Shown one piece after another: positions 3,001 to 18,272 of a DNA stretch of 64,000 bases. How positions within the stretch are numbered: position 1 is the first letter of the stretch; each line of letters starts with the position of its first letter. The DNA is taken from contig CACYYH010000002.1 of the NCBI GenBank assembly GCA_902778565.1, forward strand, positions 5,659-69,658. The letters run 5' to 3'. The stretch is from an uncultured Eubacteriales bacterium (GTDB taxonomy: Bacteria > Bacillota > Clostridia > Peptostreptococcales > Anaerovoracaceae). The notes beneath the pieces are model-generated. The model saw nothing but the letters and a program-made list of their open reading frames with translations, made no database searches and was not told where the DNA came from. The position numbers were made by a program, and so were the translations under genes.

Positions 3001-3749
3001 GAATATCCATCCCTATACTTGATCATATAATAAATATCACCATTTGATTCAAAAACTGATTTAGGGACAGGCAAAACGAACGTACGACCTATAACGGTTT
3101 CATCGTCATCACCATAAATCTCGATTACATTTGCAATCGGGGTTCCTTCAACCAGAGTATGATTTGTCTCATCAGATGCATCAAGTATCTCACTCTGTTT
3201 GCCATAAGCCATACCATTAAAACGATCAAGAGTACTTGCTTCTGTAGCACCATCAATGGATGTGATAAGCCATGCATTATCGCCTTTGATGACCACGCGT
3301 GCTGATTCAGAATCGAAGTGGTACATGCTAACCAATGCAGTTTTCAGTCCGGGAATAGTGTATGTGCCATCTGCAAGTTCAACGGGATCAGCTGCCGGCT
3401 CATCCCCATCACCTCTGACCGGTTCAGCAGTTACAGCTGCCACTTCAGGAGCTTCTTCCTGTACCTCAGGTTTAGGAATTTCAGCTGTAACTTCAGGAGC
3501 TTCTTCCTGAACAACTTCCGGCGCAGGCTCTTCCTCAGCAGGAAGTTCCTCCTGTACCTCAGCTTCAGGTTCTGCAATTTGCTCTGCCTCTTCGGCTGCC
3601 GGTGCAGCTTCAGCTTCAGGAGCGTCTAAGATCACTTCATTAGCTTCAGCTTCTGTGAAATCATCAGCATAAACCGGCATGGCCATGAACGTGAATACCA
3701 TAGCCACCGACAGGAGCATCACTAAGGCTTTTTTTAATCCTTGTTTCAT
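1..3749 (-). CDS. Large secreted cell-surface protein, C-terminus outside window (>=1249 aa): signal peptide, acidic Pro/Glu/Ala-rich linker, DUF4430-like (transcobalamin-like) module, helical ...ALTxxQK... repeats
   Basis: Absent from the ORF track because no stop lies in the window. Manual minus-strand translation from ATG 3749 gives MKQGLKKALVMLLSVAMVFTFMAMPVYA... with RBS AGAAAGGAAAAG upstream. The frame checked at the window edge still reads ...DNYTVKVPSVYGTMAE. The segment LWGISSTNNLFYINDKGIPSGVTTDTVKEGDVLYV resembles DUF4430. The plus-strand ORFs at 1224-3629 are shadows. Confidence 0.85.
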   Translation of the reverse strand, partial: MKQGLKKALVMLLSVAMVFTFMAMPVYADDFTEAEANEVILDAPEAEAAPAAEEAEQIAEPEAEVQEELPAEEEPAPEVVQEEAPEVTAEIPKPEVQEEAPEVAAVTAEPVRGDGDEPAADPVELADGTYTIPGLKTALVSMYHFDSESARVVIKGDNAWLITSIDGATEASTLDRFNGMAYGKQSEILDASDETNHTLVEGTPIANVIEIYGDDDETVIGRTFVLPVPKSVFESNGDIYYMIKYRDGYSSSTATHDGDWYKAKGGDYYLTGYTLEWESDSTALPGEEQGPELIENRTLEMWNEQAMFKAVSASLEIYSDGSRTLVFALSGTGYIALYKGTYPEAVLDKDAIVAAMEANESTDKTIIYQTNDEGKYEFRIPLDEGQTYIPLISVSKRGFDNRATQPIEEKGFYARQATLVDEETKMNLEDYKENVEFTLSTELADFKANTTVPVYITGGPVNNNYGVAPTITMLDSTYDSVVYPSVVDGTVSTKTTALEDGKFAISIENAPNKHAFKDKTPLTFTFHVAESAPYEEAGTDVERTVTFDQLAKTITVEGTALTPKEIIEPAEPANVTFTLSNKGSFVTGKDGVAVIDRPVTVTDIDEDGSLTYDEALVAAHNAYYEGGAEAGYDPSTGMVKKLWGISSTNNLFYINDKGIPSGVTTDTVKEGDVLYVSINADASYYADWYTKFSESDLETTSEDDVTVTLTGHMGMDLSTDVQFVPLEGIQIGVWKDGSFEAIEGAVTDKDGKATFKLDAGKYILTAKGTVEGTVTDWNLMNYKTMDGTVDGTAFVKYDFDTYETYVAYTDEDHGNGPYPADEVKFISMYDEEGDETEWESLHYLKSNQLISDCPIMAPYANLTVKQGGEPAYPAGEYIVGVNSIKLADGADYGMFIPNYNGIKGKALITIAADGSATINYYNTRNTYPKIFLAELDSSALGKVATDEQLADPRCITAEVYAGDSSYREFTYSFDISDLGKTVPYVTLNKSNTFNKTQTAFVFDETMMSKAAFEVVGLIDALPAAANVTVRDKDAIEAARAAYEALTETQKTEVTNLDKLVAAEEAYAALPEKDEATIAVETAMGTLIQQYYDVNDTTAAAVAKTRADYEALTLQQKAYIEDSALFKLHRAEACVAFANDGIAEGAIYDMAVDTSDNSPFVAATISPRSNAAYVYLYSVAEEYSGAALVSGTVSKSTHTVVGNGSVLKGLWMVQTSEGQGRTFVMKLTGANGDSDNYTVKVPSVYGTMAE

Positions 3750-3832
3750 ATGCTTTTCCTTTCTCTAAAATAACTAGTTTAACAAGTTTCTCGCTTTCTG
3801 GATTTGCTTTCTTTCTTTGGCCCTCCAGCCAA

Positions 3833-3898
3833 ACAAAAAACCTCCTTTCCTCAGAAAGCAGGTGCTCTTAACGCAAAAACAGGCCCGGAGGCCTGTTA
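3833..3898 (-). terminator. Two tandem intrinsic terminator hairpins (expression platform of the cobalamin riboswitch)
   Basis: Minus strand has AACAGGCC-TCCG-GGCCTGTT followed by TTTTGCG (3872-3898). It also has CCTGCTTTC-TGAG-GAAAGGAGG followed by TTTTTTG (3833-3863). Both lie between the aptamer and ATG 3749. Confidence 0.7.
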
Positions 3899-3949
3899 TC
3901 ATGCACTTATAGCATTGGGCACACTTTCTCCGGAAGCAATTACCAATAT

Positions 3950-4140
3950 ATCTTCACAGCAGGTTTCCTGACTCACAGATCTGCATTCCCCCGAGCCTTC
4001 TCAGACGTACCAAAACGTATATATCGTCCGTGTGACGTCCAATGGCATATTTCGGGAAAACTCCCTGTTCACAGTGACCGGATCGCTCAGGATTCTCACC
4101 TGATTCCCTATTATCCAGACTATTACCGCCTGGCACTGTA
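3950..4140 (-). promoter_or_regulatory. Cobalamin (B12) riboswitch aptamer
   Basis: Minus-strand RNA reads ACAGTGCCAGGCGG...AATAGGGAATCAGGTGAGAATCCTGAGCGATCCGGTCACTGTGAACAGGGAG...ATGCCATTGG...GAGTCAGGAAACCTGCTGT. It contains the conserved AGGGAA/GGTGAGAATCC/CACTGT core and a B12-box-like AGTCAGGAAACCTGC, and P1 closes as ACAG...CTGT. Confidence 0.85.
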
Positions 4141-4165
4141 AAGCTTATTATTTTTTGACGCAATT

Positions 4166-4195
4166 ATTATATCAGTATCTACTATTATATGTCAA
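4166..4195 (-). promoter_or_regulatory. Sigma-A type promoter for the riboswitch-controlled transcript
   Basis: Minus strand TTGACA-N18-TATAAT about 25 nt upstream of the aptamer. Confidence 0.55.
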
Positions 4196-4206
4196 TTATT
4201 TCGCAA

Positions 4207-4240
4207 TAAAAAAGAGGGGTCTCACACTCGGAAACCCCTG
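4207..4240 (-). terminator. Intrinsic terminator ending the nine-gene TRAP/enzyme operon
   Basis: Minus strand AGGGGT-loop-ACCCCT followed by CTTTTTTATT, 40 nt after the CoA-transferase stop. Confidence 0.7.
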
Positions 4241-4279
4241 TTTAAATCAAGGTTTTTTGTTCTTAAGCCCTCATATCAC

Positions 4280-5815
4280 TTATTCCTGAAATATCCGTTC
4301 GTCCATCAGCTTCAGTCCTTCGTCCACTATAGGTGTGAAATCCATAAGATCGAGGATCTGGGTCTGCACATCTATGCCCGGCGCAACCTCTGTCAAATGG
4401 AGCCCATCCTTCCTGAGTTCGAATACACATCTCTCAGTTATGTATTTTACGGGCTGTTTTATTTTTTTTGCATATTCTCCGCTGAAGGTGATCTGTTCAG
4501 CCTTATTTATGAACTTTTTAGCTCTACCTTCATTCAGAACAATGAGTTTGCCGTCGTTGACCTCTATCTTGAGTCCTCCTGCCGTAAATGTGCCGCAGAA
4601 ATAAACCCTTTTGGCATTCTGGGTGATATTAATGAAACCTCCGCAGCCAGCTACTCTGCCTCCGAACTTTGAGACATTTACATTACCTTTCTCGTCTACT
4701 TCAGCTAAACCCAGAAATGCATCATCTATACCTCCGCCATCGTAAAAATCAAACTGATTCGCTTGGTCGATTATAGCCTGAATATTAATTGCTCCGCCGA
4801 ACTGCGGTCCTGCCTGAGGAACACCACCGATACCGCCGGCCTCAACTGTCAGTGTCATATAGTCACCTATGCCCCACTCACTGGCACAAAGGGAAACGTA
4901 TTCCGGTATGCCGATTCCCAGGTTTACTACTGTATCAGGGCTGAGCTCCAAAGCACATCTTCTGCCGATTATTTTTTTCGGACTCATTGGAGGATATTTG
5001 ATCTCTCCCAGTTCTTTGATAAAATCACCTGTCATGGAGCCATCATATTCGCATCCCACACACTGTTCATGCTCTTTCGGATCGTCACAAACCACGATAT
5101 AGTCCACGTATATGCCGGGGATTTTCACAAGTTTAGGATCGCAAAGTTCATCCTCGAGCTTACGCTCTACCTGTACTACTACGATGCCTCCGCAGTTTTT
5201 AGTGGCCTGAGCAGTTGAGAGGACTTCTGTAGTTGTTACTTCTCTTTCCAGAGAGATGTTTCCATAGCGGTCTGCGCTAGTTCCACGCAGGAAACAGATG
5301 TCTATGGGGATCGATTTATAGAGAAGTTTTTCTTCCCCAAGGATATCAACCACTTCTACCAGATCCTCTGTTGTTATGCTGTTAAGCTTACCGCCTTCTT
5401 CTCTTGGATCTACAAAAGTGCCGAGACCCACATGCGTGATAGTACCCGGTTTTCCTGCAGCAATGTCTCGCATAAGATGCGACAGCGTTCCCTGAGGGAA
5501 ATTATACGCTTCGATCTTATTATCTAATGCCATCTGTCCCAGCTTAGGAGCCATATTCCAATGACCGCCTATGACCCTTTTAACCATACCTTCATGGGCA
5601 AAATGATCCGTACCTGAACCATCTCTGTTCCCCTGAGCAGAAGTATGGAACAGAGTCAGATTTCTTGGCTTACCTGTCTCAAGGAATCTTTTTTCAAGGG
5701 CTCCTGTCAGGTTCTCCGGAAGAGCGCACGCCACAAATCCGGATGGAACTATAGTCATTCCGTCTTTTACGAGCTCTGCCGCCTGTTCTTTTGTAATGAA
5801 TTTAGCACATTTCAT
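4280..5815 (-). CDS. Family I acyl-CoA transferase (propionate/acetate CoA-transferase, Pct/YdiF type)
   Basis: 511-aa ORF. The N-terminus FITKEQAAELVKDGMTIVPSGF resembles Pct (..IITADEAAKLIKDGDTV..). Length is typical of the family. Confidence 0.8.
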   Translation of the reverse strand: MKCAKFITKEQAAELVKDGMTIVPSGFVACALPENLTGALEKRFLETGKPRNLTLFHTSAQGNRDGSGTDHFAHEGMVKRVIGGHWNMAPKLGQMALDNKIEAYNFPQGTLSHLMRDIAAGKPGTITHVGLGTFVDPREEGGKLNSITTEDLVEVVDILGEEKLLYKSIPIDICFLRGTSADRYGNISLEREVTTTEVLSTAQATKNCGGIVVVQVERKLEDELCDPKLVKIPGIYVDYIVVCDDPKEHEQCVGCEYDGSMTGDFIKELGEIKYPPMSPKKIIGRRCALELSPDTVVNLGIGIPEYVSLCASEWGIGDYMTLTVEAGGIGGVPQAGPQFGGAINIQAIIDQANQFDFYDGGGIDDAFLGLAEVDEKGNVNVSKFGGRVAGCGGFINITQNAKRVYFCGTFTAGGLKIEVNDGKLIVLNEGRAKKFINKAEQITFSGEYAKKIKQPVKYITERCVFELRKDGLHLTEVAPGIDVQTQILDLMDFTPIVDEGLKLMDERIFQE

Positions 5816-5861
5816 AAATTACTGACCTCTTTTCAAATAGAAATAATCATTTCGTTTCGGA

Positions 5862-6836
5862 TCATCCTACAACCAGGTACTTTTCATCAATTACACCGGT
5901 CATAAGGCCTACCAGGTTTTTTGCTGCCAGCCAGTTGGACGCCTTGAAATTTTCGAGTGTAAAAGGTGTGGTATGAGGTGTAAGTATGCAATGGGGGGCG
6001 CCGATAAGTTTGGAATCCGTGCAGGGTTCCTTATCAAATACGTCTACTGCAGCACCTGCCAGTTTGCCGCTCTCAAGGGCTTCCCTGATCGCCTCTTCAT
6101 CTCCCACCCGTCCGCGGGCAATATTGAAAAGAATGCTGCCGTCCTTCATTTTTCCAATGAAATCTCTGTTTATCAGATAAGTAGTTTCTTCTGTAAGCGG
6201 CACACAAACGCAAGTATAGTCGCTCTCAGCCAGAAGTTCGTCAAGCGGCTTGTAAACAGCGCCGTACTGATCTGCTATGCCTGCCAGTTCTTCTCCATTG
6301 GGATGTTGTCTGTTATATATTATGTTCATTTCAAAAGCGCTTGCTCTCTTCGCTATCTCATGTCCAAGTGCTCCGTAACCCACAATACCCAGAGTCCTGG
6401 TCTTTGCACCCGGCATGAACATACGTCTCCACTCGCCCTTATGCATATATTCGCTCTGGAGATCTACCCTGCGGGCAAAGTACAGGATATATGCCATCAC
6501 GCCCTCGCCGACTGACGATTCTATCGTCCCTCTTGCTCTGGCGACCTTAATGCCATGGCCCCTGCAGTACTCTATGTCCACGCTGTCCAGACCGACTCCG
6601 CGGCGGGAAACGTATTTCAGATTCTTACACGCTTTAAATACAGGTTCCGATGCTTTTTCCAGCGCGTTGATCAACCCATCAGCATCACCTATAGCTTCGA
6701 TCATTTCTTCATCGGTAGTGGATGAACTGAATCCTGCATTGCTCAAGTCAATCACTTCCAGCCCTTGCTCCTGAAGCCATTCTATAACTTCCGGGCTTGG
6801 CCCTGAAAACTCTCTTGCTGTTATTACTACTTTCAT
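5862..6836 (-). CDS. D-isomer-specific 2-hydroxyacid dehydrogenase family protein
   Basis: 324 aa. NAD fold GIVGYGALGHEIAKRA. Also ARGRVGDEEAIREALESGKLAGAAVDVFDKEP. Confidence 0.85.
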   Translation of the reverse strand: MKVVITAREFSGPSPEVIEWLQEQGLEVIDLSNAGFSSSTTDEEMIEAIGDADGLINALEKASEPVFKACKNLKYVSRRGVGLDSVDIEYCRGHGIKVARARGTIESSVGEGVMAYILYFARRVDLQSEYMHKGEWRRMFMPGAKTRTLGIVGYGALGHEIAKRASAFEMNIIYNRQHPNGEELAGIADQYGAVYKPLDELLAESDYTCVCVPLTEETTYLINRDFIGKMKDGSILFNIARGRVGDEEAIREALESGKLAGAAVDVFDKEPCTDSKLIGAPHCILTPHTTPFTLENFKASNWLAAKNLVGLMTGVIDEKYLVVG

Positions 6837-6848
6837 CTTGCGTTCCTT

Positions 6849-8810
6849 TCAGAGTTCAGCTACTGCATTGACAGCCGCTTCAGTGGCTCCATGAATCGTT
6901 CCGGGTGCCTTTGCTGCGTCGCCTATCACAACCGGATTTATCCCTATTTCTTTTAATTCTTCCGCTAATGAATTTACGCTTTTAACACCTACTGCAGATA
7001 CTACCGTATCTACGTTTTTTATCTCTTTGATTTCCCCGTCTTTTTCATATCTTATAACATCATTCTCAACCGATAACACCTTTGCCGAGGTAATGATATT
7101 TATGCCCTTTCCCAGCATCCTTCTTATCATCAGAGGCCTTTCGGAAGTCTTCAGATCCGCTGCGACAGACGGGAGCATTTCTATTACCGTTACTTTGCGG
7201 CTCCTTACGTTGAGGTCATTTACCGGATGCGCCAAAAAATCCGCCGTCTCGCAGCCTACAAGGCCTCCGCCTACCACAACGGTATTCACTCCGCTCATTG
7301 CCTTTCCCTCAAGAGCATCAAAAGATGTGATAAGGTTTGCTGCCCCTTTCAGGAAACCCGGCACTATCGGTTCTCCGCCTGTACATACCAATACGTGGTC
7401 ATAGTTTCTTTCTTTGATTTCTTCTGCTGTGAGAGTACAGTCAGTAGTTATCTTCACTCCATATCTCTCACATTCTTCTATCATATACCTCGTGCCGGCA
7501 GCTATTTCCTGCTTGCATGGAGGAAAAGCCGCCAGGTACATCTGACCTCCAAGACGGTCGCTTGCTTCTATAAGTTCAACGTCAAATCCTCTGTAGGCTA
7601 CATACTTTGCAGCGGTCAAGCCCGCAGGCCCTCCGCCTACCACCAGAACTCGACCGGAAGATTTGTCTCTGCCGTTAATAAGCTCTCTCAATTCGAATTC
7701 TCTTCCTGCTTCCGGATTCATCGTGCACCTTACAGGATTATCAAAGTTTACATTCGATATACAATGATTACAGCCTATACACGGTCTGATCTCATTCTCA
7801 ATACCGTTAAAGGCCTTATTCGGGAACTCCGGATCGCACAGCATGCTCCTTCCCATATAGCAGGCATCTGCTTTCCCCAAAGCAAGGATCATTTCAGCGA
7901 CCCATGGTTCATTTATCCTTCCAATGAAGCCAACCGGGATAGAGACTGCTTCTTTTATTGCCGCCGCTCTTTCCATGTTAAAGCCCTTGGGAGTTCCGTT
8001 GGGAGCAAGTGTCTCCCATGGCGTTGTAAAGGTACCATAGGACATGTGTATCATCGATGCTCCTTCTTCCTCAAATCTCTTTGCGACATATCTGCCATCC
8101 ATGAGGGACTGTCCGCCTTCAAATCCGTCCTCAGCCGACATCCTCATCATTATCGGGAATCCTTCCGGTACTCTGCTTCTGATCTCTCTGAGGACTTCCA
8201 GGGTGAGTCTCAGCCTGCCCTCAAGGTTTCCGCCATAACAGTCGACCCTCTTGTTTTCCATTGGTGAAAGAAAACGTCCCAAAAGACCGTGCCCATGGCA
8301 GCAGTGGATCTCTATCGCGTCGAAACCTGCCTTAACAGCTCTCACCGCTGCTTCACCGAACTTCCTGACTATTAGCTTAAGCTCCTCTATAGTAGCAGCT
8401 CTGGATAACTCCCCTATCGCTCTTGCTTCCAACGGAGATGCCGCGACGGACTGTATACCTCCGTTATATGCAGCTGAAGCGTATGAAGATGGATGCATGA
8501 GCTGTACGCATAGCTTGACATCGTACTTGTGAGCCATATTTGTCAGCTTTTTCAGTTCATCTATCATCCTGTCCTCATAGAGCCCGAGATTATGATACGT
8601 CCCATAATTAGTATTCTCCGAAATCAGGACGTATTCGGTAGTCATGAGTCCCATACCGCCTTTGAGACGAGCCTCATAATATGCAAGCATCTCTTCTGTT
8701 ACGTTAAAATCTTCCCCCGCCAGATGTGATCCCACAGGTGACTGGAAGATGCGGTTTTTGACCACCATATTTCCTATAGTTATCGGTTTGAATAAATTGT
8801 CGTATCTCAT
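6849..8810 (-). CDS. OYE-like FMN/FAD/[4Fe-4S] oxidoreductase (2-enoate reductase / 2,4-dienoyl-CoA reductase family)
   Basis: 653 aa. N-terminal OYE barrel (IEIHCCHGHGLLGRFLSP), Cys motif CIGCNHC, C-terminal Rossmann VVGGGPAGL. Confidence 0.85.
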   Translation of the reverse strand: MRYDNLFKPITIGNMVVKNRIFQSPVGSHLAGEDFNVTEEMLAYYEARLKGGMGLMTTEYVLISENTNYGTYHNLGLYEDRMIDELKKLTNMAHKYDVKLCVQLMHPSSYASAAYNGGIQSVAASPLEARAIGELSRAATIEELKLIVRKFGEAAVRAVKAGFDAIEIHCCHGHGLLGRFLSPMENKRVDCYGGNLEGRLRLTLEVLREIRSRVPEGFPIMMRMSAEDGFEGGQSLMDGRYVAKRFEEEGASMIHMSYGTFTTPWETLAPNGTPKGFNMERAAAIKEAVSIPVGFIGRINEPWVAEMILALGKADACYMGRSMLCDPEFPNKAFNGIENEIRPCIGCNHCISNVNFDNPVRCTMNPEAGREFELRELINGRDKSSGRVLVVGGGPAGLTAAKYVAYRGFDVELIEASDRLGGQMYLAAFPPCKQEIAAGTRYMIEECERYGVKITTDCTLTAEEIKERNYDHVLVCTGGEPIVPGFLKGAANLITSFDALEGKAMSGVNTVVVGGGLVGCETADFLAHPVNDLNVRSRKVTVIEMLPSVAADLKTSERPLMIRRMLGKGINIITSAKVLSVENDVIRYEKDGEIKEIKNVDTVVSAVGVKSVNSLAEELKEIGINPVVIGDAAKAPGTIHGATEAAVNAVAEL

Positions 8811-8833
8811 TTGATCGCTCCTTTACTAAAGGT

Positions 8834-8865
8834 CAGCTCCCTGCCCGGGAATGGACAGGGAGCTG
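8834..8865 (-). other. Intercistronic stem-loop between aldolase and reductase genes
   Basis: CAGCTCCCTG ... CAGGGAGCTG forms a 10-bp stem. No U-tract follows on the mRNA strand. Confidence 0.4.
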
Positions 8866-8889
8866 TTCGATTAAAAATCAAGGAGATTT

Positions 8890-9657
8890 TTACTTAGCTA
8901 TAAGGTCCTTTACCGCCTGAAGACGCTTTTCGCTCTCCTGACGGAAGAAAACCTGGTCGTTCATACATGTTACAAGTTTAAATCCCTGCTTGACTTTAGC
9001 TGCAGCTGCTTCTGCTGTACCTGTCACAATACCGGGAACTATCCCGTATTTATTACATGCGTCGAGTACAGTCTGGATTGCTGCCTGAACTTCCGGATCA
9101 GAGGCAGGCTTGCCATAATCCTGAGACAGATCTGCCGTTCCGATGAAAACACAGTCCAGTCCGGGGGTCTGACATATTTCTTCTATGTTCGCAACTCCTT
9201 TTTGGGACTCGCACTGCATGATTGTATACAGATTCTCGTTTGCCTGCTGCTGATAGTTTTCTATCTTTCCCCAGCGGGGTCCGCGGCCGCCATTGGCTCC
9301 GCGCATTCCAAGAGGCGGGTATTTGATATAGTGTATGATCTTATCAGCCTGTTCTCTGCTTTCGACCATTGGTACCATGATTCCATGGATGCCGACGTCC
9401 AGAAGTCTGGACATCATAGTATAATCATCCGGATCATATACTCTTACAAAAGCAGACATCTCATAGAGTTCTGAAGCCCTGGACATTTCCACCAGAGTTT
9501 CGGTATCAGTCTGAGCATGTTCAGCATCTATGATTATGAAATCCATACCGTTTATGGCAAGGCATTCACAATTCATAGGGGATCCGGATGCAACGAAAGC
9601 ACCAAGCACATAACCGTTCTGTTCCAGACGTTCTCTTGCAAAGCATCTCATTTTCAT
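8890..9657 (-). CDS. HpcH/HpaI family 2-keto-3-deoxy-acid aldolase (copy 1)
   Basis: 255 aa. IIIDAEHAQTD and PLGMRGANGGRGPRWG motifs. RBS AAAGAGG. Confidence 0.8.
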   Translation of the reverse strand: MKMRCFARERLEQNGYVLGAFVASGSPMNCECLAINGMDFIIIDAEHAQTDTETLVEMSRASELYEMSAFVRVYDPDDYTMMSRLLDVGIHGIMVPMVESREQADKIIHYIKYPPLGMRGANGGRGPRWGKIENYQQQANENLYTIMQCESQKGVANIEEICQTPGLDCVFIGTADLSQDYGKPASDPEVQAAIQTVLDACNKYGIVPGIVTGTAEAAAAKVKQGFKLVTCMNDQVFFRQESEKRLQAVKDLIAK

Positions 9658-9669
9658 ATCAGTGCCTCT

Positions 9670-10101
9670 TTATTTATTCTTATACTTTACTTCAAGCTTG
9701 TCGTTCAGTTCAACTACGCCCTCTTCAGCAAGCTTCTGTATGAAAGGTACATATGCTTCTTTAAAGTTAGTACGAGGAGTTCCGAAGATATCCATCTGAA
9801 GGCAAGGGAAATCCGTGTCATGTACATCGATATAATGCTCTACGCCGCCGGGAACTGTTACGAATCCACCGGGGGTCAGGTGATAGCATACTCCGTCTAC
9901 CCAGTAATCACACTCACCTGCAATACAGAAAGCTATCTGCTCTTCGGGATGTGAATGAGGTCTCTTTTCATGGCCGGCCTCTACCAGTCCGATCGTTACT
10001 GTGCAGTCATCAGCTCCCATAGCTAAAGTAACCTGCTTGATACCCTCTCTTAAAGGTCTGAACGGCATATCGTTCCAATTTCCACTCATGATCATTGACA
10101 T
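9670..10101 (-). CDS. Cupin domain protein (copy 1)
   Basis: 143 aa. Cupin metal motif HSHPEEQIAF...GGVEHY. RBS TAGGAGG. Confidence 0.8.
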   Translation of the reverse strand: MSMIMSGNWNDMPFRPLREGIKQVTLAMGADDCTVTIGLVEAGHEKRPHSHPEEQIAFCIAGECDYWVDGVCYHLTPGGFVTVPGGVEHYIDVHDTDFPCLQMDIFGTPRTNFKEAYVPFIQKLAEEGVVELNDKLEVKYKNK

Positions 10102-10150
10102 AATTATATCCTCCTAAATCAAACTTTATTTACTAAAGATAATACTCTGT

Positions 10151-11428
10151 TTAAGCTCCCAAAAGATTCGGCAGGAAAAGAACTATCTGCGGTACGAATG
10201 CTATGAGAAGCGTTACCGCAAGTGCTGCTATGATAAACGGAAGCAGCGGTTTGGAGATCTTTTCAAGCGGGATTTTTGTGATATTTGAAGTAACGAACAG
10301 CGTCATGCCTACAGGCGGTGTAACGAGGCCTATGGTAAGCATGATACAGAACCATACACCGAACTGAACTTCATCCATACCCGCATAGAGTGCCAGCGGC
10401 ATCATAACGGGAGTGAATATCAGCTGAGCTGCTGTAGCTTCCATAGCGCAGCCTACGACGATAAGTATCGCGAACATCATCAGGATGATGATCACTGAGC
10501 TTTCCGTCATGCTCATTACAGCATTCTGGATCATCTGAGGTACATTGGCTACGGCCATACTCCATCCGATAATGTTTCCGAATCCGATGATGATGAAGAT
10601 TCCGGAAATAACAGTGGTGGATCTCATCAGTACTCTGGGAATGATCTTGAAGCTGAACTTTCTGTATATCAGACCTGCCACGATAGCTGCAGCGATAGCT
10701 ACAGAACCTGATTCGGCAGGTGTGAATATGCCGGCAGTGATACCAAATACCATAATGAAAGGTACCAGAAGAGCCGGAATGGCTTTAACAAATTTCTTCA
10801 AAAGATCTTTTCCGTCGAAATGCTCAATACTTCTGGGAAGATTGCGCTTTTTGACGTTAAGACGAATGATGATGATGTAAGCCAGACCGATCAGAATGCC
10901 GGGAATGGCTCCGCCTTCGAACATTGCAGATACCGAAATGCCGGTAAGTACGCTGCAATAGATAAATGTGGTGCTGGGCGGTATTACCGGTCCCAGAACA
11001 CCGGATGCGCATACGAGAGCGGACGAGAAATCCGCGGGATATTTATCACGTACCATTTCAGGTACGACTACGGAGCACAGGATCGCTGCTACAGCATTGG
11101 CAGATCCAAGAATAGCTGACAGGATCATTGCTACGATTACTACCACGTATGCCAGGCCGCCTTTGAACTGTCCTACCAGCGCACGGACGAAATCAATGAG
11201 TTTCTCCGTAACGCCGCTGGCATTCATCAGCTCTCCGGCGATGATGAAGAAAGGAATACAGGTCAGAGCGCTTACGCCCATTCCTGCAAACATTTTCTGA
11301 GTTATAACACCAAAATAGCTTGCGTTACCAATGGTAACAATATGTGTAACGCCGGCAAGACCGAGAACGAAGCATATCGGCATACCGATGATCAGCATTA
11401 AAAGAAATACTGCTACTACTATACCCAT
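10151..11428 (-). CDS. dctM: TRAP transporter large permease
   Basis: 425-aa polytopic membrane ORF typical of the DctM family. Overlaps dctQ by 1 nt. Confidence 0.9.
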   Translation of the reverse strand: MGIVVAVFLLMLIIGMPICFVLGLAGVTHIVTIGNASYFGVITQKMFAGMGVSALTCIPFFIIAGELMNASGVTEKLIDFVRALVGQFKGGLAYVVVIVAMILSAILGSANAVAAILCSVVVPEMVRDKYPADFSSALVCASGVLGPVIPPSTTFIYCSVLTGISVSAMFEGGAIPGILIGLAYIIIIRLNVKKRNLPRSIEHFDGKDLLKKFVKAIPALLVPFIMVFGITAGIFTPAESGSVAIAAAIVAGLIYRKFSFKIIPRVLMRSTTVISGIFIIIGFGNIIGWSMAVANVPQMIQNAVMSMTESSVIIILMMFAILIVVGCAMEATAAQLIFTPVMMPLALYAGMDEVQFGVWFCIMLTIGLVTPPVGMTLFVTSNITKIPLEKISKPLLPFIIAALAVTLLIAFVPQIVLFLPNLLGA

Positions 11429-12030
11429 TATGCTTCACCTCCTTCGGTTCCGGCTTCTGCTGCTTCAACTATTGCCTCAACTGCCGAATCATGAACCTGA
11501 TCGTTTATTACCTCTCCGGCCACGTTCAGTTTCAGATCGTAAGTGCCGTCTTTGAATTTCCTGAAAATCTCATAATAGTTTTCTATTGCAAACAAGACGA
11601 TCATTCCCAGACCTATGATGATAGGCAGATAAGGCCAAACCATTGAGATCTGGAGACCGATGCTGACTTGTTTAGCTACAGAAGGCAACATAACTGTATA
11701 GATAGCATTTCTGAAAACAAAAATCGCGAATGCAAGCGAGATAGTGTTGATCACAAGTTCCCATGCAAGTTTGGCAGGACCTCTGACTCTGTTTCGGATC
11801 AAATCGAATGCAACCAACTCACCTTGACGGAAACATGCCGCGCCGCCTATCATAGCTACCAAAACGATGCAGTAACGAATGAGTTCGTCTGCCCACATAG
11901 ATGAATTGCCAAACAGATAACGTCTGGTTATTTCCATCAAGGAGACAACGACCATGACTCCGATAGTCACAGCGGCAATAACCTTAGCTGCATATTCTAT
12001 TATATCCAGGACCTTATTTACAGCTTTCAT
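11428..12030 (-). CDS. dctQ: TRAP transporter small permease
   Basis: The ORF track starts at 12093, but AAGGAG lies 6 nt before ATG 12030 (MKAVNKVLDII...). Four-TM DctQ-like protein with an acidic C-terminal tail. Confidence 0.8.
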   Translation of the reverse strand: MKAVNKVLDIIEYAAKVIAAVTIGVMVVVSLMEITRRYLFGNSSMWADELIRYCIVLVAMIGGAACFRQGELVAFDLIRNRVRGPAKLAWELVINTISLAFAIFVFRNAIYTVMLPSVAKQVSIGLQISMVWPYLPIIIGLGMIVLFAIENYYEIFRKFKDGTYDLKLNVAGEVINDQVHDSAVEAIVEAAEAGTEGGEA

Positions 12031-12060
12031 AAGAATCTCCTTGAAAAATGATATAACATT

Positions 12061-12096
12061 GGAGTGCCCTTTCTGATTAATCAGCCAGGACACTCC
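12061..12096 (-). other. Long imperfect hairpin between dctP and dctQ (possible mRNA stabiliser or partial terminator)
   Basis: GGAGTGCCCTTTCTGATTAATCAGCCAGGACACTCC, with the central CTGATTAATCAG perfectly palindromic. Confidence 0.4.
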
Positions 12097-12117
12097 TTTT
12101 ACTACTTTTTAAGTCAA

Positions 12118-13146
12118 TTATTTTGAGTTAAGCTCTACGACCTTATCTACGAATGCTGCAACGCCTTCGCTCTGAGCTTTGATGTCATCCCAAAGAGGCA
12201 TAGCCTTGTCAACGAATTCCTGACGTGCATCGCCTTCGATGGTGTTGATCTCTAATCCTGCATCAAGGCATGTCTGCTCTGCAGTTGACTCAAGGTCTGC
12301 AAGATACTTTGTGAAGCAGTTTTCCTCACCAAGATCGAATCCTTCGATGATAACATTCTGGGTCTCTTCGGGAAGTGAATTCCAGAAATCAAGATTTACA
12401 CAGGTGAACTCAGGATAAGGATACATACCGATCTTGGAGATGTACTTAAGCTGTTCATAGTGCTTAAGAGCATAAACGGATGTGATGTTGATCTCTTCGC
12501 CGTCTACTACGTTATTCTGAAGTGCAGAATAAACTTCATTGTAGTTAACTACCATAGGGGAAGCTCCAAGGGTCTCCATTACAGTCTGAAGGATTTGTGT
12601 AGGAGCTATACGAAGCTTAAGGCCTTTGAGGTCAGCAAGAGTATTTATAGGACGTACATTGTTTGCAAAGTGACGGATACCGTTCTCAAGGCACATAGGA
12701 AGGATCTTAACTCCCATAGCTTCTCCGGCTTCATCGCAAAGTGCGATCCATTCATCACTGTTGAATGCAGCTCTCTCTACGTCATAGTCACCGATAAGGA
12801 AAGGCAGCTGTGCGCAGTCAAGAACTGTGGTGTAAAGAGATGCCTGTGAAAGTGAAAGGCATGCAATCTGGATGGTTCCATCCATTACCTGCTGCATGGT
12901 ATCAGCTTCTCCACCGAGAACTGCGTCTCCCTTATAGTCAATATTAAGGTTGGAGTTCTCATTGATGTATTTGATAGCATCCTGAACTCCCAGCTGAGGA
13001 GGCATGCTGCTGTTTCCATAGGAAGCGTATACAACATTGATAACCTCATCAGTTTCTGCAGGGGCAGGTTCACTTGATCCGCCGCAGGCTGCGAACATGC
13101 TTACTGCAAGCACAAGTACCATGATTAAAACTAAAAACTTCTTCAT
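12118..13146 (-). CDS. dctP: TRAP transporter substrate-binding lipoprotein
   Basis: 342 aa. Lipobox MFAAC after a hydrophobic signal peptide. DctP-like length and composition. Confidence 0.85.
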   Translation of the reverse strand: MKKFLVLIMVLVLAVSMFAACGGSSEPAPAETDEVINVVYASYGNSSMPPQLGVQDAIKYINENSNLNIDYKGDAVLGGEADTMQQVMDGTIQIACLSLSQASLYTTVLDCAQLPFLIGDYDVERAAFNSDEWIALCDEAGEAMGVKILPMCLENGIRHFANNVRPINTLADLKGLKLRIAPTQILQTVMETLGASPMVVNYNEVYSALQNNVVDGEEINITSVYALKHYEQLKYISKIGMYPYPEFTCVNLDFWNSLPEETQNVIIEGFDLGEENCFTKYLADLESTAEQTCLDAGLEINTIEGDARQEFVDKAMPLWDDIKAQSEGVAAFVDKVVELNSK

Positions 13147-13208
13147 GTTAATCTCCTCTCTTTTTAATAAAAAGACTTTTTAATAACTCGTTAATTGGTA
13201 TATCATGA

Positions 13209-14087
13209 TCAGACGCCCAGAAGTTTTGCGGGATTTTCTTTGGCTATCAGATTGATATCTTCTTCAGTTAAACCGAACTTTTCCATCAGAAGGTTGATGA
13301 AACCATACATGCCTTCTACCGGTGAGCCGTTGTTCTTCTGACCCATGTCAGAGTCAAGTATCAGCTGTGAAAGAGGAACAGCATCAAGCATGCCCTTTAT
13401 AACATCGTCATCCAGGGATCCGAGCTTGGCTCCGCTCTTGAACACACATACATTCATCTCAATGAATGCACCCATCTTTGCCCATTTTGACATCTGCTCA
13501 TATGAGGCTTTGATCATGAACTGAGGATGGTTGACTAATATTCTTTTCACTCCCAGTTCGCATGCCTTTTCAACCAGATGGTCAATTTCCCAGGCAGTGC
13601 CATGACCTGTGCCCAGCACTACGTCCTTTTCAGCGATAAGTTTAAGAAGCTCGATAGCTGCAGGATCCATATTGCCTTCCTCATCGACATATACAACGGG
13701 AGTCTCTTCGACCTTGCCGTTGCCGGCTCCGGCGAAGTGCTGTCCCCTGTGGCTGTCTATATGATTTTTTGTGGAAACCGTAGGGAAGTATACTATCTTT
13801 GCTCCCATATTTATGGCAGACTCAGCTGCCAGGGGATTAAAGAGACCAACGGAATTATTCATGGCAATTGCACCATAAACTTCCACTCCCTGAGAATCAT
13901 TATGTGCCTGAACCATTTTGGTTCCCATGACTGTGGGGAAATAATGATCCTTTACAAGGAATCCTCTGTATCCTGCTGCTTTAGCAAGTACCAGCATCTC
14001 TGCAGCGTCTACTTCTCTGTTTGCGACAGACGGGCCTGCATGGATATGAATATCAAGTATTCCTTTTAAAATGCTGCGATCTACCAT
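13209..14087 (-). CDS. Amidohydrolase-superfamily metal-dependent hydrolase (function unknown)
   Basis: 292 aa. N-terminal DIHIHAGPS (HxH) motif and later GTGHG/ILDSD motifs typical of TIM-barrel metallohydrolases. First gene after the sigma-54 promoter. Confidence 0.6.
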   Translation of the reverse strand: MVDRSILKGILDIHIHAGPSVANREVDAAEMLVLAKAAGYRGFLVKDHYFPTVMGTKMVQAHNDSQGVEVYGAIAMNNSVGLFNPLAAESAINMGAKIVYFPTVSTKNHIDSHRGQHFAGAGNGKVEETPVVYVDEEGNMDPAAIELLKLIAEKDVVLGTGHGTAWEIDHLVEKACELGVKRILVNHPQFMIKASYEQMSKWAKMGAFIEMNVCVFKSGAKLGSLDDDVIKGMLDAVPLSQLILDSDMGQKNNGSPVEGMYGFINLLMEKFGLTEEDINLIAKENPAKLLGV

Positions 14088-14168
14088 ATTTTATCCTCCT
14101 TACTTTATGCTGCGGGATCTCGTCCGTTTGTCCCGCTTAAATTCTTTGCAATATCTGCCATATAACAG

Positions 14169-14186
14169 TTGCAGATTTCGTGCCAA
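14169..14186 (-). promoter_or_regulatory. Sigma-54 (-24/-12) promoter of the nine-gene operon
   Basis: Minus strand TTGGCACGAAATCTGCAA, read as TGGCAC-N5-CTGC. It lies 82 nt upstream of ATG 14087. Confidence 0.8.
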
Positions 14187-14272
14187 AACCAGTTCTATTA
14201 AAACAAGGCTTCTTCACACAGTTTTAATTCACTTTTGAATTATCCAACCTGTTTTTAAGTCATAAATGACTT

Positions 14273-15163
14273 TTAAATAACTGCTTCCATGAAAGTTTTA
14301 AAAGGATCCGGTTCTTCACCATCATCTTCTGCCGGTATTTCGATATAATCGATTCCCAGAATGACGCGTTCGTTCAAAGTCTCTCCGGATTTCAACTCCA
14401 CTTTTTCCTTTGAGTTCATTCTGAACACACATGATGTCGTTTCTCCCGCCTTCTCCTCTTCGGCAGTAGCCTCTGTCAATGTAGAATATACAGAGTAGTG
14501 AAGGAGTCCATCACTCTCTGCCAGCTCCAGCATCGGCTTTATCTCATCACTCTCAGAAACAGCAACAGGGCTTTTTTCCTTAAAAGGGACGAAGGACAGG
14601 TTGCGATATTCGCTTTCCGATGTATCCATCTCATATGGAAAATCATATATGATCTTAGGGCAGAAGCTTCTGAGTGACATCGCCCTGCCTTTTGCTCCTA
14701 TATATATCCTGCTCTCAAAATCGAGTTCCGTGCTCTCTTCAGCACTTATAAAATAGTTTATTATGAGACGATTCAGATTGACCCACATTATCTGGCAGCC
14801 TAGAGTAAGCTCGGAATCTGCCACTTCTCCTTTGTCCACTTTGCAGGTGAAAAGCACGTAATTGTCACCCTCTTCAGCAACGTCCCATACTTTATTTGCT
14901 GTAACTTTTCCCAGATATCCACCCCACAGGCAGCCTGCTGCATTGCTCTTGACAAATTTTTCTTTAATAAAGGAATCATCAAGAAGGCTTTCCATGGACA
15001 TGTTCTCGCCATGTACATGAATACCGCAGATCCTTGAACCGTAACTGCTTACGTCCACATAATCACCTGTATTGTTTGGTATTCTGTACAGCCAGGCTTC
15101 TTTACCGTACTCATCTTTGAAAAAAAGTGCTTTTTTAATCGTTTGTGTCATCTCGTTCACCAT
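14273..15163 (-). CDS. Hypothetical protein (weak resemblance to the N-terminal part of the aldose-1-epimerase fold)
   Basis: The ORF runs to 15265, but the sigma-54 promoter at 15196-15212 places the TSS near 15185. The start is therefore most likely ATG 15163 (MVNEMTQ) or 15151 (MTQTIKK). Confidence 0.6.
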   Translation of the reverse strand: MVNEMTQTIKKALFFKDEYGKEAWLYRIPNNTGDYVDVSSYGSRICGIHVHGENMSMESLLDDSFIKEKFVKSNAAGCLWGGYLGKVTANKVWDVAEEGDNYVLFTCKVDKGEVADSELTLGCQIMWVNLNRLIINYFISAEESTELDFESRIYIGAKGRAMSLRSFCPKIIYDFPYEMDTSESEYRNLSFVPFKEKSPVAVSESDEIKPMLELAESDGLLHYSVYSTLTEATAEEEKAGETTSCVFRMNSKEKVELKSGETLNERVILGIDYIEIPAEDDGEEPDPFKTFMEAVI

Positions 15164-15195
15164 TTTCCGTAAGTTATGATTGATGCCAATAAGAT

Positions 15196-15212
15196 TAGCA
15201 ATTGTTATGCCA
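15196..15212 (-). promoter_or_regulatory. Sigma-54 (-24/-12) promoter
   Basis: Minus strand TTGGCATAACAATTGCT, read as TGGCAT-N5-TTGCT with exact spacing. Confidence 0.75.
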
Positions 15213-15229
15213 ACATCAAAAAATTTTAA

Positions 15230-15270
15230 ATGGTATGGTTTTTGCTTTAATATTTCGCAAAACATAATAA
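15230..15270 (+). promoter_or_regulatory. Promoter region of the second cupin-aldolase pair: sigma-54-like element with 1-nt-long spacer, overlapping a sigma-A-like element
   Basis: TGGTATGGTTTTTTGCT puts GG-to-GC spacing one nt longer than consensus. The alternative is TTGCTT-N17-TAATAA (15242-15270). Confidence 0.4.
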
Positions 15271-15302
15271 TCTAATCACAGATTTTGAAAGGAGATATTC
15301 TC

Positions 15303-15779
15303 ATGGCAAAAATTATGTATGGCAATTATAATGATCTTCCTTGGATGCCCAACCATAACAAGGACGTTGATGGCAAAATAATGTGCTGGACAAAAGCTTT
15401 CGCAATGGAAGCAGCTAACTTCCATATGGGTATCGGCAAGATGCTCAACGGAATGCCCCAGGGTCCTCACACTCATCCCAATGAGCAGATCGCAATGGTA
15501 GTTAAAGGCGAATGTGATTATTGGGTTAACGGCGTACCTTACCGTCTTACTCCCGGTTCTTGGGTAAACGTTCCCCCTCACTATGTACACTGGGCTCACG
15601 TATACCGCTCAGTAGGTCCCTGCTATCAGCTCGACATAATGAGTCCCAGAAGAACTTCAACCTGCGATGCTTATATCAAATGGCTCAAGGAAGAGCATGA
15701 CATCGACTGGAATGCAGGTGGAATCGAAGTGCCCGACCTCGATGCTCCTCAGGATCCCAACGTAGAAGCAAGACTGTAA
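15303..15779 (+). CDS. Cupin domain protein (copy 2)
   Basis: AGGAG lies 8 nt before ATG 15303 (MAKIMYGNYNDL...). Motif HTHPNEQIAM. Paralog of 9670-10101. Confidence 0.8.
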   Translation: MAKIMYGNYNDLPWMPNHNKDVDGKIMCWTKAFAMEAANFHMGIGKMLNGMPQGPHTHPNEQIAMVVKGECDYWVNGVPYRLTPGSWVNVPPHYVHWAHVYRSVGPCYQLDIMSPRRTSTCDAYIKWLKEEHDIDWNAGGIEVPDLDAPQDPNVEARL

Positions 15780-15802
15780 CCTTTAAAAGGAGGCGCCGCT
15801 AT

Positions 15803-16600
15803 ATGCAAATGAGAAATCTCGTAAGAGAAAAAATCGAGAAACAGGGATATGCTCTCGGTGCATTCGTGGCTTCGAGTTCTCCCATGCACTGTGAGATACT
15901 CGCCATGAACGGGATCGATTTCATGATACTTGACTGTGAGCATGCACAGACAGATGCAGAATCCGCCGTAAACATGTTCAGAGCATGCGAACTTTATGGT
16001 GCTGCTCCCATCGTACGCGTATACAATCCGTTTGACGGTCCCATGATGAGCCGCTATCTCGATATAGGCGCTCATGGAGTTATGACTCCGCTCGTCAGCA
16101 CAGTAGAGCAGGCCCGGAATATAGTTGACAATATGAAGTATGCCCCTATAGGTAAGAGAGGCGCAAACGGAGGCAGAGGCCCGCGCTGGGGAGCATATGA
16201 AGATTATATCCACGTCGCTAATGACAATACCCTTGCCATTGCTCAGATCGAATCACTTGAAGGTGTTGAAAACGTAGAAGAGATCGCTGCTATGCCCGGA
16301 ATAGATGCGCTTTTTATCGGAACCGGCGACCTTTCTTTAGAGATGGGACTTCAGTTCAAAGCCGATTCAGCCGCCAACCATAAAGTGGAATCCGAAGAAA
16401 TGGTTAAGAATATTGACCGTATACTTCAGGCTGCACTGAAAAATGGCAAGATACCCGGGATAGTTACAGCTTCAGCAGAAGACGCTATCAGGAGGATCAA
16501 GCAGGGTTTCCAATTCGTAACGTGCATGAACGATCTGGGTTTCTTCCGTTCAAGAAGCAAGATGCATCTGGACAGTATACGCGAAGCAGTAAGCAAATAA
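15803..16600 (+). CDS. HpcH/HpaI family aldolase (copy 2)
   Basis: 265 aa. Aligns by eye along its full length with 8890-9657 (ILDCEHAQTD, PIGKRGANGGRGPRWG). Confidence 0.8.
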   Translation: MQMRNLVREKIEKQGYALGAFVASSSPMHCEILAMNGIDFMILDCEHAQTDAESAVNMFRACELYGAAPIVRVYNPFDGPMMSRYLDIGAHGVMTPLVSTVEQARNIVDNMKYAPIGKRGANGGRGPRWGAYEDYIHVANDNTLAIAQIESLEGVENVEEIAAMPGIDALFIGTGDLSLEMGLQFKADSAANHKVESEEMVKNIDRILQAALKNGKIPGIVTASAEDAIRRIKQGFQFVTCMNDLGFFRSRSKMHLDSIREAVSK

Positions 16601-16637
16601 TCATATTGAATCTTGTTCCTTTATTAATCAACTATTA

Positions 16638-16670
16638 CAAAACCTCCTCATTTGAGGAGGTTTTGTTTTG
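16638..16670. terminator. Bidirectional intrinsic terminator
   Basis: AAACCTCCTC-ATTT-GAGGAGGTTT followed by TGTTTTG. It sits between convergent genes. Confidence 0.8.
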
Positions 16671-16702
16671 TGCTGACAGTGTTCTGTTTTAAAATATTGT
16701 CA

Positions 16703-18184: not shown

Positions 18185-18244
18185 AAATTTCAGCCTCTCA
18201 CTACGTGTGTTATAAACATATGATATAATATTATATTATAAAAA

Positions 18245-18272
18245 ATTATACTTGAAAAGATTATTGATTCAA
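18245..18272 (-). promoter_or_regulatory. Sigma-A type promoter for the activator gene
   Basis: Minus strand TTGAAT-N16-TATAAT. Confidence 0.45.

Follow-up and report, generated by a model that had tools for sequence, protein, structure and literature searches.

Which imported acid is consumed by an operon that joins a tripartite ATP-independent periplasmic (TRAP) transporter to an amidohydrolase-type enzyme, a cupin, an aldolase, a flavoenzyme, a dehydrogenase, and a coenzyme A (CoA)-transferase, and by what chemistry? These genes lie on the minus strand between positions 14087 and 4280 of the window, a 64,000-nucleotide (nt) stretch on contig 2 of an assembly (1.78 Mb in 86 contigs, 90% complete) of an uncultured Eubacteriales bacterium. 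On balance, the evidence leans towards a catabolic operon under the control of sigma-54 and an enhancer-binding protein (EBP), in which an imported di- or tricarboxylic acid would be cleaved to pyruvate and a small acid. We consider it likely that the conserved core of the operon, its reductase, and its CoA-transferase tail belong to a single catabolic route.

Layout and control of the operon

Open reading frame (ORF) calling placed nine co-directional genes, here numbered g1 to g9, on the minus strand with short spacers, and the Pfam matches of all nine products exceeded the curated cut-offs. The first gene, g1 (13209–14087; PF19799, 223.7 bits), encodes a DUF6282 protein, an amidohydrolase-superfamily metalloenzyme that is putatively a hydrolase, hydratase, or lactonase. 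After 62 nt it is followed by a full TRAP set, each component above its Pfam cut-off: the DctP-type solute-binding lipoprotein g2 (12118–13146; DctP, 194 bits) with an N-terminal lipobox-like signal, the small permease DctQ, g3 (11428–12030; 88 bits), and the large permease DctM, g4 (10151–11428; 328 bits, and 338 bits to TIGR00786 against a cut-off of 268), whose start overlaps the g3 stop by 1 nt. The DctQ ORF as called spans 11428–12093 from a GTG at 12093, and an AAGGAG sits 7 nt before the ATG at 12030, which judging from this arrangement is most likely the start; the g2–g3 spacer then measures 87 nt. Next come the small metal cupin g5 (9670–10101; Cupin_2, 47 bits), 49 nt behind g4 and proposed to be an isomerase or tautomerase, and, after 12 nt, the HpcH/HpaI class II pyruvate aldolase g6 (8890–9657; PF03328, 117 bits against a cut-off of 25). 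A 79-nt spacer separates g6 from g7 (6849–8810; Oxidored_FMN and Pyr_redox_2), a predicted ene-reductase of the OYE/FadH type carrying FMN, [4Fe-4S], and FAD/NAD(P) sites. The last two genes are g8 (5862–6836; 2-Hacid_dh and 2-Hacid_dh_C), a D-isomer-specific 2-hydroxyacid dehydrogenase resembling glyoxylate/hydroxypyruvate reductases, 12 nt after g7, and g9 (4280–5815; CoA_trans), a fused family-I CoA-transferase of the YdiF type, 46 nt after g8.

A sigma-54-type −24/−12 element (TGGCAC-N5-CTGC, one mismatch to TTGC) lies on the minus strand at 14171–14185, 84 nt before the g1 ATG, and an intrinsic terminator on the same strand at 4207–4239 closes the operon with a 9-bp stem (4239–4215) followed by a T run. 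Allowing up to one mismatch, the window contained six sigma-54 motifs where 3.5 were expected, and six or more turned up in 15 of 100 shuffles, so the bare count is not above chance. It is placement that argues for promoters beyond chance, since each of the six sites is oriented towards a start codon 35–99 nt downstream, the genes concerned being g1, u1, and those for an AEC permease, BKACE, DUF169, and AbfD. The genome contains rpoN (462 bits, cut-off 277; contig C49) and eleven EBP matches at E ≤ 1e-55. The sole such activator within the window, a PAS-AAA+-HTH protein encoded on the minus strand at 16703–18184 (Sigma54_activat, 242 bits), is likely the regulator of the operon. An earlier note on this DNA had described nine genes bracketed by one promoter and one terminator in a sigma-54 setting. 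The correctly spaced site at 14171–14185 and the terminator at 4215–4239 agree with that description, the sigma-54 setting is borne out by the spaced element together with rpoN and the EBP gene, and the gene families it assigned stand on the Pfam matches.

The DUF6282 core and the genes added to it

An alignment search with DUF6282 gave 294 candidate stretches in species-representative genomes; 245 of them were confirmed as relatives, from which the best 80 were fetched, and 78 loci have a g1 match. Features within 8 kb were tallied at 69 loci with DUF6282 at 40% identity or more, and same-strand gene runs at 85 loci. Because nine of the 85 were fetched through g7, the reductase count in that tally is inflated and the g7 frequency was taken from the 69 loci. 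Both tallies are lower bounds since many loci end at contig ends. A cupin gene was found near DUF6282 in 50/69 loci, HpcH in 52, both in 42, DctM in 38, and all three in 24. BKACE and EBP homologues each accompanied the module in 19/69 loci and a g7-type reductase in 14, with a g8-like and a g9-like gene each present in a single locus. The order g1–g6 was the same in three Oscillibacter loci (L009, L011, L012), and the order g1–g8 was retained in a metagenome contig (L084) with 74–98% protein identity that stops inside g8. The full nine-gene order recurred solely in ruminant-gut contigs. A 17,675-base sheep-gut contig from a separate study covers all 9,951 bases, with 218 differences, and therefore the operon is not an assembly artefact. 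The operon is thus a conserved g1–g6 module (DUF6282, DctPQM, cupin, HpcH) with additions, and not two equal halves.

The module recurs in many anaerobes. The host of this copy is probably an Anaerovoracaceae-type Clostridium, since the same-family genome G021 matches Bacilliculturomica massiliensis, assigned by NCBI to Anaerovoracaceae, at 100% identity over 3,882 bases. With g1 as query, DUF6282 was found in none of nine same-genus genomes and one of 24 same-family genomes, and the nearest homologues of g1 (73–79% identity) belonged to Oscillospiraceae of the genera Lawsonibacter, Intestinimonas, Papillibacter, and Oscillibacter. The protein collection held 624 DUF6282 matches at E ≤ 0.001. 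At least part of the stretch was present in 20 sequencing runs from 13 studies, and 12 runs held half or more of the sampled words; nine of the 12 runs richest in the stretch were labelled bovine or sheep gut, one of the 12 possibly being the source dataset. Across genomes, the carriers joined to the module were DctPQM, TAXI-TRAP, TctABC, CitMHS/MatC, AAE, and AEC types, and a di- or tricarboxylate substrate fits because the carriers belong to those families. Other partners within the 85 gene runs were BKACE (18 loci), CtfA/CtfB (14), thiolase (13), a PreA/DHODH-like flavin/Fe-S reductase unrelated to g7 (11), and aminotransferases (6). A few loci also had a ScpC-type succinyl-CoA:acetate transferase, class I fumarase, 3-hydroxyacyl-CoA dehydrogenase, or an AAE-family carrier.

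The g7-type flavoenzyme is specifically linked to the DUF6282 pathway. When metagenomes were scanned with g7, 50 loci were recovered. All nine with homologues of at least 48% identity had DUF6282, cupin, HpcH, or BKACE on the same contig, versus none of the 34 listed loci at 28–39% identity, one of which has a weak g8-like gene on the opposite strand. BKACE adjoins a g7-type reductase in several loci (L019, L089–L092) and lies about 0.9 kb upstream of one, on the same strand, in L088. Since the g7-type enzyme and the PreA/DHODH-like enzyme are two non-homologous reductases that occupy the same place, reduction of a C=C bond appears to be a step of the route. In g7 itself, cysteines C344, C347, C350, and C362 form a C-x2-C-x2-C-x11-C motif and two dinucleotide-binding glycine motifs are present. 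Its best solved relatives were 2-naphthoyl-CoA reductase (6qkg, E 8e-70) and FadH (1ps9), and it scored under the NCBIfam cut-offs for BaiCD (483 vs 825), bilirubin reductase (426 vs 750), and the mycofactocin OYE (413 vs 793).

The lineage-specific tail consists of g8 and g9, the only parts of the operon peculiar to this lineage; g7, g8, and g9 occurred together in none of the 78 genome loci with a g1 match. In the NCBIfam glyoxylate reductase model g8 scored 183 bits against a cut-off of 455, and 2-hydroxyacid dehydrogenase genes were in the DUF6282 gene run of 4/85 loci, including L052 and L086. For g9, the match to YdiF (2ahu, E 1.2e-138, residues 10–509) covers the fused alpha-beta CoA_trans architecture, and the score to the Staphylococcus FadX equivalog was 408 against a cut-off of 750. 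A sister genome without DUF6282 (G001, locus L146 on G001:C10) has an EBP gene, a 47% identical BKACE, and an 82% identical g9 orthologue in a row. Homologues of g9 adjoin a crotonase gene in G021 and G022 (62–64%), and in G026 a homologue (58%) has Bcd and Etf genes no more than about 7 kb away. With CtfAB and thiolase in DUF6282 runs elsewhere, these neighbors and the likeness to YdiF make g9 best read as an acetoacetate/short-acyl CoA-transferase of the route, and not as a lactate- or phenyllactate-type activator.

At the seam between core and additions lies a GC-rich minus-strand hairpin with a 13-bp stem (8834–8865), and the 79-nt g6–g7 spacer folds at −33.6 kcal/mol (z −5.9). Another hairpin (12061–12096, minus strand; −26 kcal/mol, z −5.4) falls in the DctP–DctQ spacer and is intergenic because the DctQ start was moved to 12030. 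Folding energies and z scores confirmed both of these internal hairpins, which the earlier note had named. The terminator scan called neither, and there was no U tract directly after either stem. In L084, two compensatory swaps at the base of the stem preserve the pairing at 8834–8865, and the sheep-gut contig differs at 8848 and 8852, both of them loop positions. The 79-nt spacer had no promoter-like site, and sigma-70-like sites over 3500–18500 were at chance (32 vs 27.5 ± 4.8). A hairpin behind a binding-protein gene is a common means of raising the binding protein above the permease. The hairpin at the g6/g7 seam may attenuate or stabilize the transcript.

Two variants of the gene neighborhood are recorded here as observations in their own right. 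In the metagenome locus L086, a gene of the 4-oxalocrotonate tautomerase (4-OT) family (7582–7974) and one for a 280-amino-acid ferredoxin-motif protein (9941–10783) flank the reductase, followed by TctC, a 2-hydroxyacid dehydrogenase, and TctA. In L025–L028 (Clostridiales, Oscillibacter), a module variant has a gene run without cupin or aldolase. Its order in L025 is DUF6282, an MR_MLE enolase-superfamily gene, a LarA-like gene, BKACE, DUF169, and u1; in L027 and L028 the run extends through BKACE and DUF169, and the contig of L026 stops at BKACE.

A candidate route and its rivals

In the NCBIfam scan each enzyme of the operon scored under its equivalog cut-off and none was named at equivalog level. 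The earlier note had held that no pathway it could name fits these genes, and these scores, together with a literature that offered no assignment, agree with it; its proposal of an imported carboxylate was also supported. The AlphaFold model of g1 (predicted local distance difference test score 96) is an amidohydrolase-type (beta/alpha)8 barrel. H14, H16, K46, H162, H187, E210, and D247 are invariant in 56 sequences, and of these the HxH pair (H14/H16), H162, H187, and D247 form the amidohydrolase-superfamily pattern. Structural matches to the model (VIA Z 19–21, 8–18% identity) included renal dipeptidases, Aquifex dihydroorotase, TatD, lactonases resembling PTE, isoaspartyl dipeptidase, and LigI-like proteins, with allantoinase and dihydroorotase among the top matches. 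Because the superfamily matches are tied at Z 19–21, the subfamily of g1 cannot be named. The DUF6282 profile found no PDB sequence below E 0.099, and a literature search on DUF6282 found no characterized member. In the ESM Atlas the protein matched nothing but DUF6282 clusters and had no structure entry.

The binding protein g2 had no close solved relative (best 2hpg, E 3e-28), and the proteins it matched bind many different ligands. The cupin g5 keeps an HxH...E...H metal motif by sequence reading, and its PDB matches were weak (4e2g, quercetinase, and the 2-oxo-acid allylic isomerase BacB). In g6, H47, R72, E150, and D176 align with H45, R70, E149, and D175 of HpaI (4b5s), which we take to be its catalytic residues. 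The family profile and the catalytic His, Arg, and Glu/Asp place g6 among HpcH/HpaI class II aldolases. Its top NCBIfam model was HpaI, and it stayed under the cut-offs of the specific aldolases (HpaI 171 vs 369 bits, GarL 160–161 vs 393–407, RhmA 136 vs 441). The best solved relatives were the 2-keto-3-deoxy sugar aldolases YfaU and GarL.

From these parts we assembled a scheme whose sequence of steps, like the functions given to g1 and g5, is drawn by analogy with LigI, LigJ, and LigU. The TRAP system would import an unsaturated oxo-dicarboxylate or its lactone or lactam ring form, probably of six to seven carbons, and the Fe-S flavoenzyme g7 would reduce an activated C=C bond. The DUF6282 metalloenzyme would then open the ring or hydrate the product, as LigI and LigJ do in the protocatechuate 4,5-cleavage pathway, and the cupin would move a double bond or shift the keto-enol form to give a 4-hydroxy-2-oxo acid. 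The HpcH aldolase would cleave this acid to pyruvate and a carbonyl fragment of about four carbons, resembling succinate semialdehyde or a beta-keto acid. This fragment, or its 2-oxo/2-hydroxy form, could be reduced or oxidized by g8, and g9 could transfer CoA among the resulting acid, acetoacetate, and short acyl-CoAs. The route might then join the sigma-54 neighbors BKACE (19838–20698) and the AbfD-Bcd-Etf-crotonase cluster (21804–28856), with acetyl-CoA and butyrate as end products. Enol/keto chemistry is suggested because the cupin weakly matches BacB and a 4-OT-family gene stands between the HpcH aldolase and the reductase in L086. A four-carbon-type unit that enters acetoacetate, succinate, or 4-hydroxybutyrate metabolism alongside pyruvate is suggested by the AbfD cluster and by the CtfAB, thiolase, BKACE, and ScpC partners. 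Such anaerobic, meta-cleavage-like chemistry giving pyruvate and a four-carbon unit is offered tentatively, as a possibility that we hold to be clearly short of probable.

Several observations weigh against the pyruvate-forming di- or tricarboxylate reading that we favor. A dedicated hydratase or dehydratase is absent from the operon, the roles given to DUF6282 and the cupin are analogies, and the structure of g1 is no closer to dipeptidases than to dihydroorotase, TatD, lactonases, or decarboxylases. BKACE was in the gene run of only 18/85 loci, and the scheme does not generate the beta-keto acid on which it would act. AbfD could be served by other CoA-transferases and Fe-type alcohol dehydrogenases (Fe-ADHs) of the genome, and the strong hairpin at the g6/g7 seam could terminate many transcripts. 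The six sigma-54 promoters plausibly form a single regulon, but no 10-mer (up to one mismatch) was common to at least five of their upstream regions. Finally, the mutarotase fold of u1, the presence of MR_MLE and LarA-like genes behind DUF6282 in L025–L028, and the relatedness of g6 to YfaU and GarL suggest sugar-acid chemistry.

A sugar acid or lactone stays a live rival because of this last set of observations, although we regard it as unlikely. In a non-phosphorylative route, TRAP would import an aldonate, uronate, aldarate, or lactone, DUF6282 would act as a lactonase or uronate-isomerase-like enzyme, the cupin as a KduI/KdgF-like isomerase, HpcH would cleave a 2-keto-3-deoxy sugar acid to pyruvate and an aldehyde, and g8 would act on the aldehyde or on hydroxypyruvate to give products of the glycerate/glycolate type. 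Lactonases, galactarolactone isomerase, and uronate isomerase are known in the amidohydrolase superfamily, and the resemblance of g8 to glyoxylate/hydroxypyruvate reductases also suits such a route, as does a BKACE step in deoxyribonate catabolism described by Price et al. (10.1101/205583). The Pfam scan, however, found no acid-sugar dehydratase or kinase in the operon, the carriers include TctABC and CitMHS types, and a tight association with two ene-reductase families, thiolase, CtfAB, and a 4-OT tautomerase would be unexpected for hexonates or hexarates. Many of the hosts, such as Oscillibacter, Intestinimonas, Sedimentibacter, and Tissierella, are amino-acid fermenters, which also counts against a sugar acid. 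The recurrent pairing of an amidohydrolase fold with reductases of two unrelated families (OYE/FadH and PreA/DHODH) could instead point to reductive cleavage of an orotate-, dipicolinate-, or nicotinate-like N-heterocyclic carboxylate. The reductase would saturate a ring C=C bond, DUF6282 would serve as a cyclic amidohydrolase or enamidase, and the cupin and aldolase would process the open-chain oxo or amino acid. Dihydroorotase and allantoinase among the top fold matches, aminotransferases in 6/85 runs, and the dearomatizing nature of 6qkg, the closest solved relative of g7, fit this proposal. We nonetheless find it doubtful: non-amidase members of the superfamily match the fold equally well, deaminase, ureidohydrolase, and aminotransferase genes are absent from the window operon, no nitrogen-releasing step is apparent from the sequence, and the proposal does not account for CtfAB, thiolase, and BKACE as partners. 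A further and quite improbable reading makes g7 a dearomatizing, CoA-independent ring reductase and the DUF6282-cupin-HpcH module an anaerobic pathway for an abundant ring dicarboxylate such as spore dipicolinate or plant pyrone-dicarboxylate, in which ring reduction, hydrolytic opening by DUF6282, isomerization, and a reverse-DapA-like aldol split would yield pyruvate and a four-carbon unit. If true, it would give a function to a DUF family in hundreds of anaerobes and genes to carbon flow in gut and digester.

The remaining alternatives divide the operon or reassign its second part. The hairpin at 8834–8865 is very stable, is kept by compensatory changes, and sits exactly where synteny with other genomes stops, and the absence of a joint g7–g9 set in the genome loci would also be expected if g1–g6 ended there and g7–g9 were a separately acquired redox/CoA unit whose chemistry may be unrelated to the imported acid. 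Against such a split, which we judge to be rather unlikely, the stem lacks a U tract and was not called as a terminator, the spacer has no promoter-like site, g7-type genes are specifically tied to the module elsewhere, and gene order is kept through g8 in L084 and throughout in the sheep-gut contig. The earlier note had set a ring-cleavage half against a Stickland-type half, a split that the g7 data do not support, as g7 belongs with the first half (nine of nine close homologues; 14/69 DUF6282 loci). Stickland-type chemistry would have g8 reduce a 2-oxo acid and g9 activate the product, the 2-hydroxyacyl-CoA be dehydrated, and g7 reduce the enoate or enoyl-CoA. The combination of a 2-hydroxyacid dehydrogenase, a CoA-transferase, and an enoate-reductase-like enzyme matches this sequence, and the single HGD-D gene of the genome lies on contig C31, 5 kb from another EBP gene. 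We regard this reading as very improbable: the operon contains no 2-hydroxyacyl-CoA dehydratase, neither operon nor window has a gene for such a dehydratase (HgdAB/FldBC type) or its activator, and g7 travels with the DUF6282 module and not with g8 or g9. To our knowledge, 2-hydroxyacyl routes use family III enzymes of the FldA/HadA type, whereas g9 is of the family-I YdiF type and linked to BKACE and crotonase genes in relatives. The label of Pct-type CoA-transferase given earlier to g9 is supported as to family I and not supported as to the 2-hydroxyacid/Stickland role, given the YdiF type and the BKACE neighbor in G001.

Neighboring genes and known systems

Upstream of g1, u1 (14273–15163, minus strand; 296 amino acids) has its own sigma-54 site at 15198–15212 and a galactose-mutarotase-like beta sandwich (TM 0.75 to 4rnl), with no Pfam family at E up to 10 and no PDB sequence match at E ≤ 10. 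In Oscillospiraceae loci, u1 forms an operon with a g7-type reductase. The identification of u1 as a bacterial chalcone isomerase was rejected on the lack of a PDB sequence match and on its mutarotase-like fold. Divergent from u1, a second cupin and HpcH aldolase pair on the plus strand (15285–16600) gives the island two paralogous isomerase-aldolase modules. The cupin of this pair is 76–80% and its aldolase 66–73% identical to those of Lawsonibacter, Intestinimonas, and Oscillibacter pairs. The monocistronic BKACE gene (19838–20698, plus strand), with its own sigma-54 site, scored under every equivalog cut-off, including those of Kce (293 vs 382) and the 3-oxoadipate type (224 vs 350). The DUF169 gene (20791–21561, minus strand) also has a sigma-54 site, and homologues were in the DUF6282 gene run of 9/85 loci; by these associations it is probably a further member of the DUF6282 pathway.

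AbfD, a 4-hydroxybutyryl-CoA dehydratase/vinylacetyl-CoA isomerase (27378–28856, minus strand; 912 bits, E 4e-274 to 1u8v over 488 residues), has a sigma-54 site and heads a Bcd-EtfBA-MaoC-LplA-crotonase cluster (21804–28856). Neither AbfT nor AbfH is beside it. The idea that g9 is the sole possible 4-hydroxybutyrate CoA-transferase for AbfD was discarded since other parts of the genome encode CtfAB, four transferases of the AcetylCoA_hydro type, and two Fe-ADHs. Past the operon terminator lies a separate unit with a strong TTGACA-N18-TATAAT promoter (4195–4166) and a cobalamin riboswitch (3941–4155, minus strand; 113.7 bits in Rfam), which lies outside the operon and was the only Rfam match in positions 1–30000.

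The operon is ordinary-looking in construction and encodes a conserved, widespread pathway without an assigned substrate. Our literature search, covering amidohydrolase, cupin, HpcH, BKACE, and TRAP contexts, found no experimentally assigned orthologous cluster. Among the literature matches listed for anaerobic dipicolinic acid degradation gene clusters there was no work on catabolism, and the main text of Nie et al. 2019 (PMC6615313) makes no mention of TRAP, aldolase, cupin, amidohydrolase, or BKACE. The window presents DUF6282 in its fullest context, with importer, reductase, cupin, aldolase, CoA tail, and sigma-54 activator. Once the substrate is defined, five co-evolving gene families would gain functions together, and it would become clear how gut and digester Clostridia convert a plant- or microbe-derived di- or tricarboxylate to pyruvate, acetate, and butyrate. 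Cultured carriers of the module, with binding proteins of the DctP, TctC, or TAXI type, include Oscillibacter valericigenes, Papillibacter cinnamivorans, Intestinimonas massiliensis, Lawsonibacter celer, and Fusibacter paucivorans.

Among characterized systems, the lower pathway of protocatechuate 4,5-cleavage and gallate degradation (LigI, LigU/GalD, LigJ/GalB, LigK/GalC) is like the core in its logic, with an amidohydrolase-fold opening or hydration, an isomerase, and a class II pyruvate aldolase acting on di- and tricarboxylates, and LigI-like structures were among the fold matches of g1 (4i6k, Z 18.9; 2ffi). DUF6282, however, is unrelated to LigI and LigJ at the sequence level, a cupin stands where those pathways have a PrpF-like isomerase, the aldolase is HpcH-type and not RraA-like, and the operon, in an anaerobic host, has no dioxygenase and an extra Fe-S flavoenzyme reductase. 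Homoprotocatechuate meta-cleavage (HpaF/HpaG/HpaH/HpaI, giving pyruvate and succinate semialdehyde) resembles the locus in that g6 scores best on HpaI and keeps its four catalytic residues, a tautomerase-superfamily gene is present in one related locus, and AbfD in the island offers a sink for succinate semialdehyde and 4-hydroxybutyrate. In contrast, g6 falls far under the HpaI cut-off, HpaG/HpaH of the FAH family are missing, and the substrate must arise without oxygen.

BKACE modules, such as those of lysine fermentation (Kce) and of phloroglucinol degradation (triacetate acetoacetate-lyase), share with the locus an ending of BKACE, acetoacetate CoA-transferase, and thiolase on a ring-opening hydrolase. 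As described in PMC10470551, anaerobic phloroglucinol degradation ends with these three enzymes, the ring is opened by DPGC, a Mn enzyme of the 'cyclase' family, and the pathway as presented there has neither an aldolase nor a TRAP importer. The phloroglucinol pathway (SDR-type PGR, DPGC, TfD, TAL) was therefore rejected for this operon, its ring opener being of the cyclase family and not DUF6282, with no cyclase-family member among the scanned products. Closest in build to g7 are 2-enoate reductases, FadH, BaiCD, and 2-naphthoyl-CoA reductase, which have the same three-domain architecture and four-cysteine cluster motif; g7 does not reach the cut-offs of BaiCD and bilirubin reductase, and its close homologues form a group of their own that is tied to the DUF6282 module.

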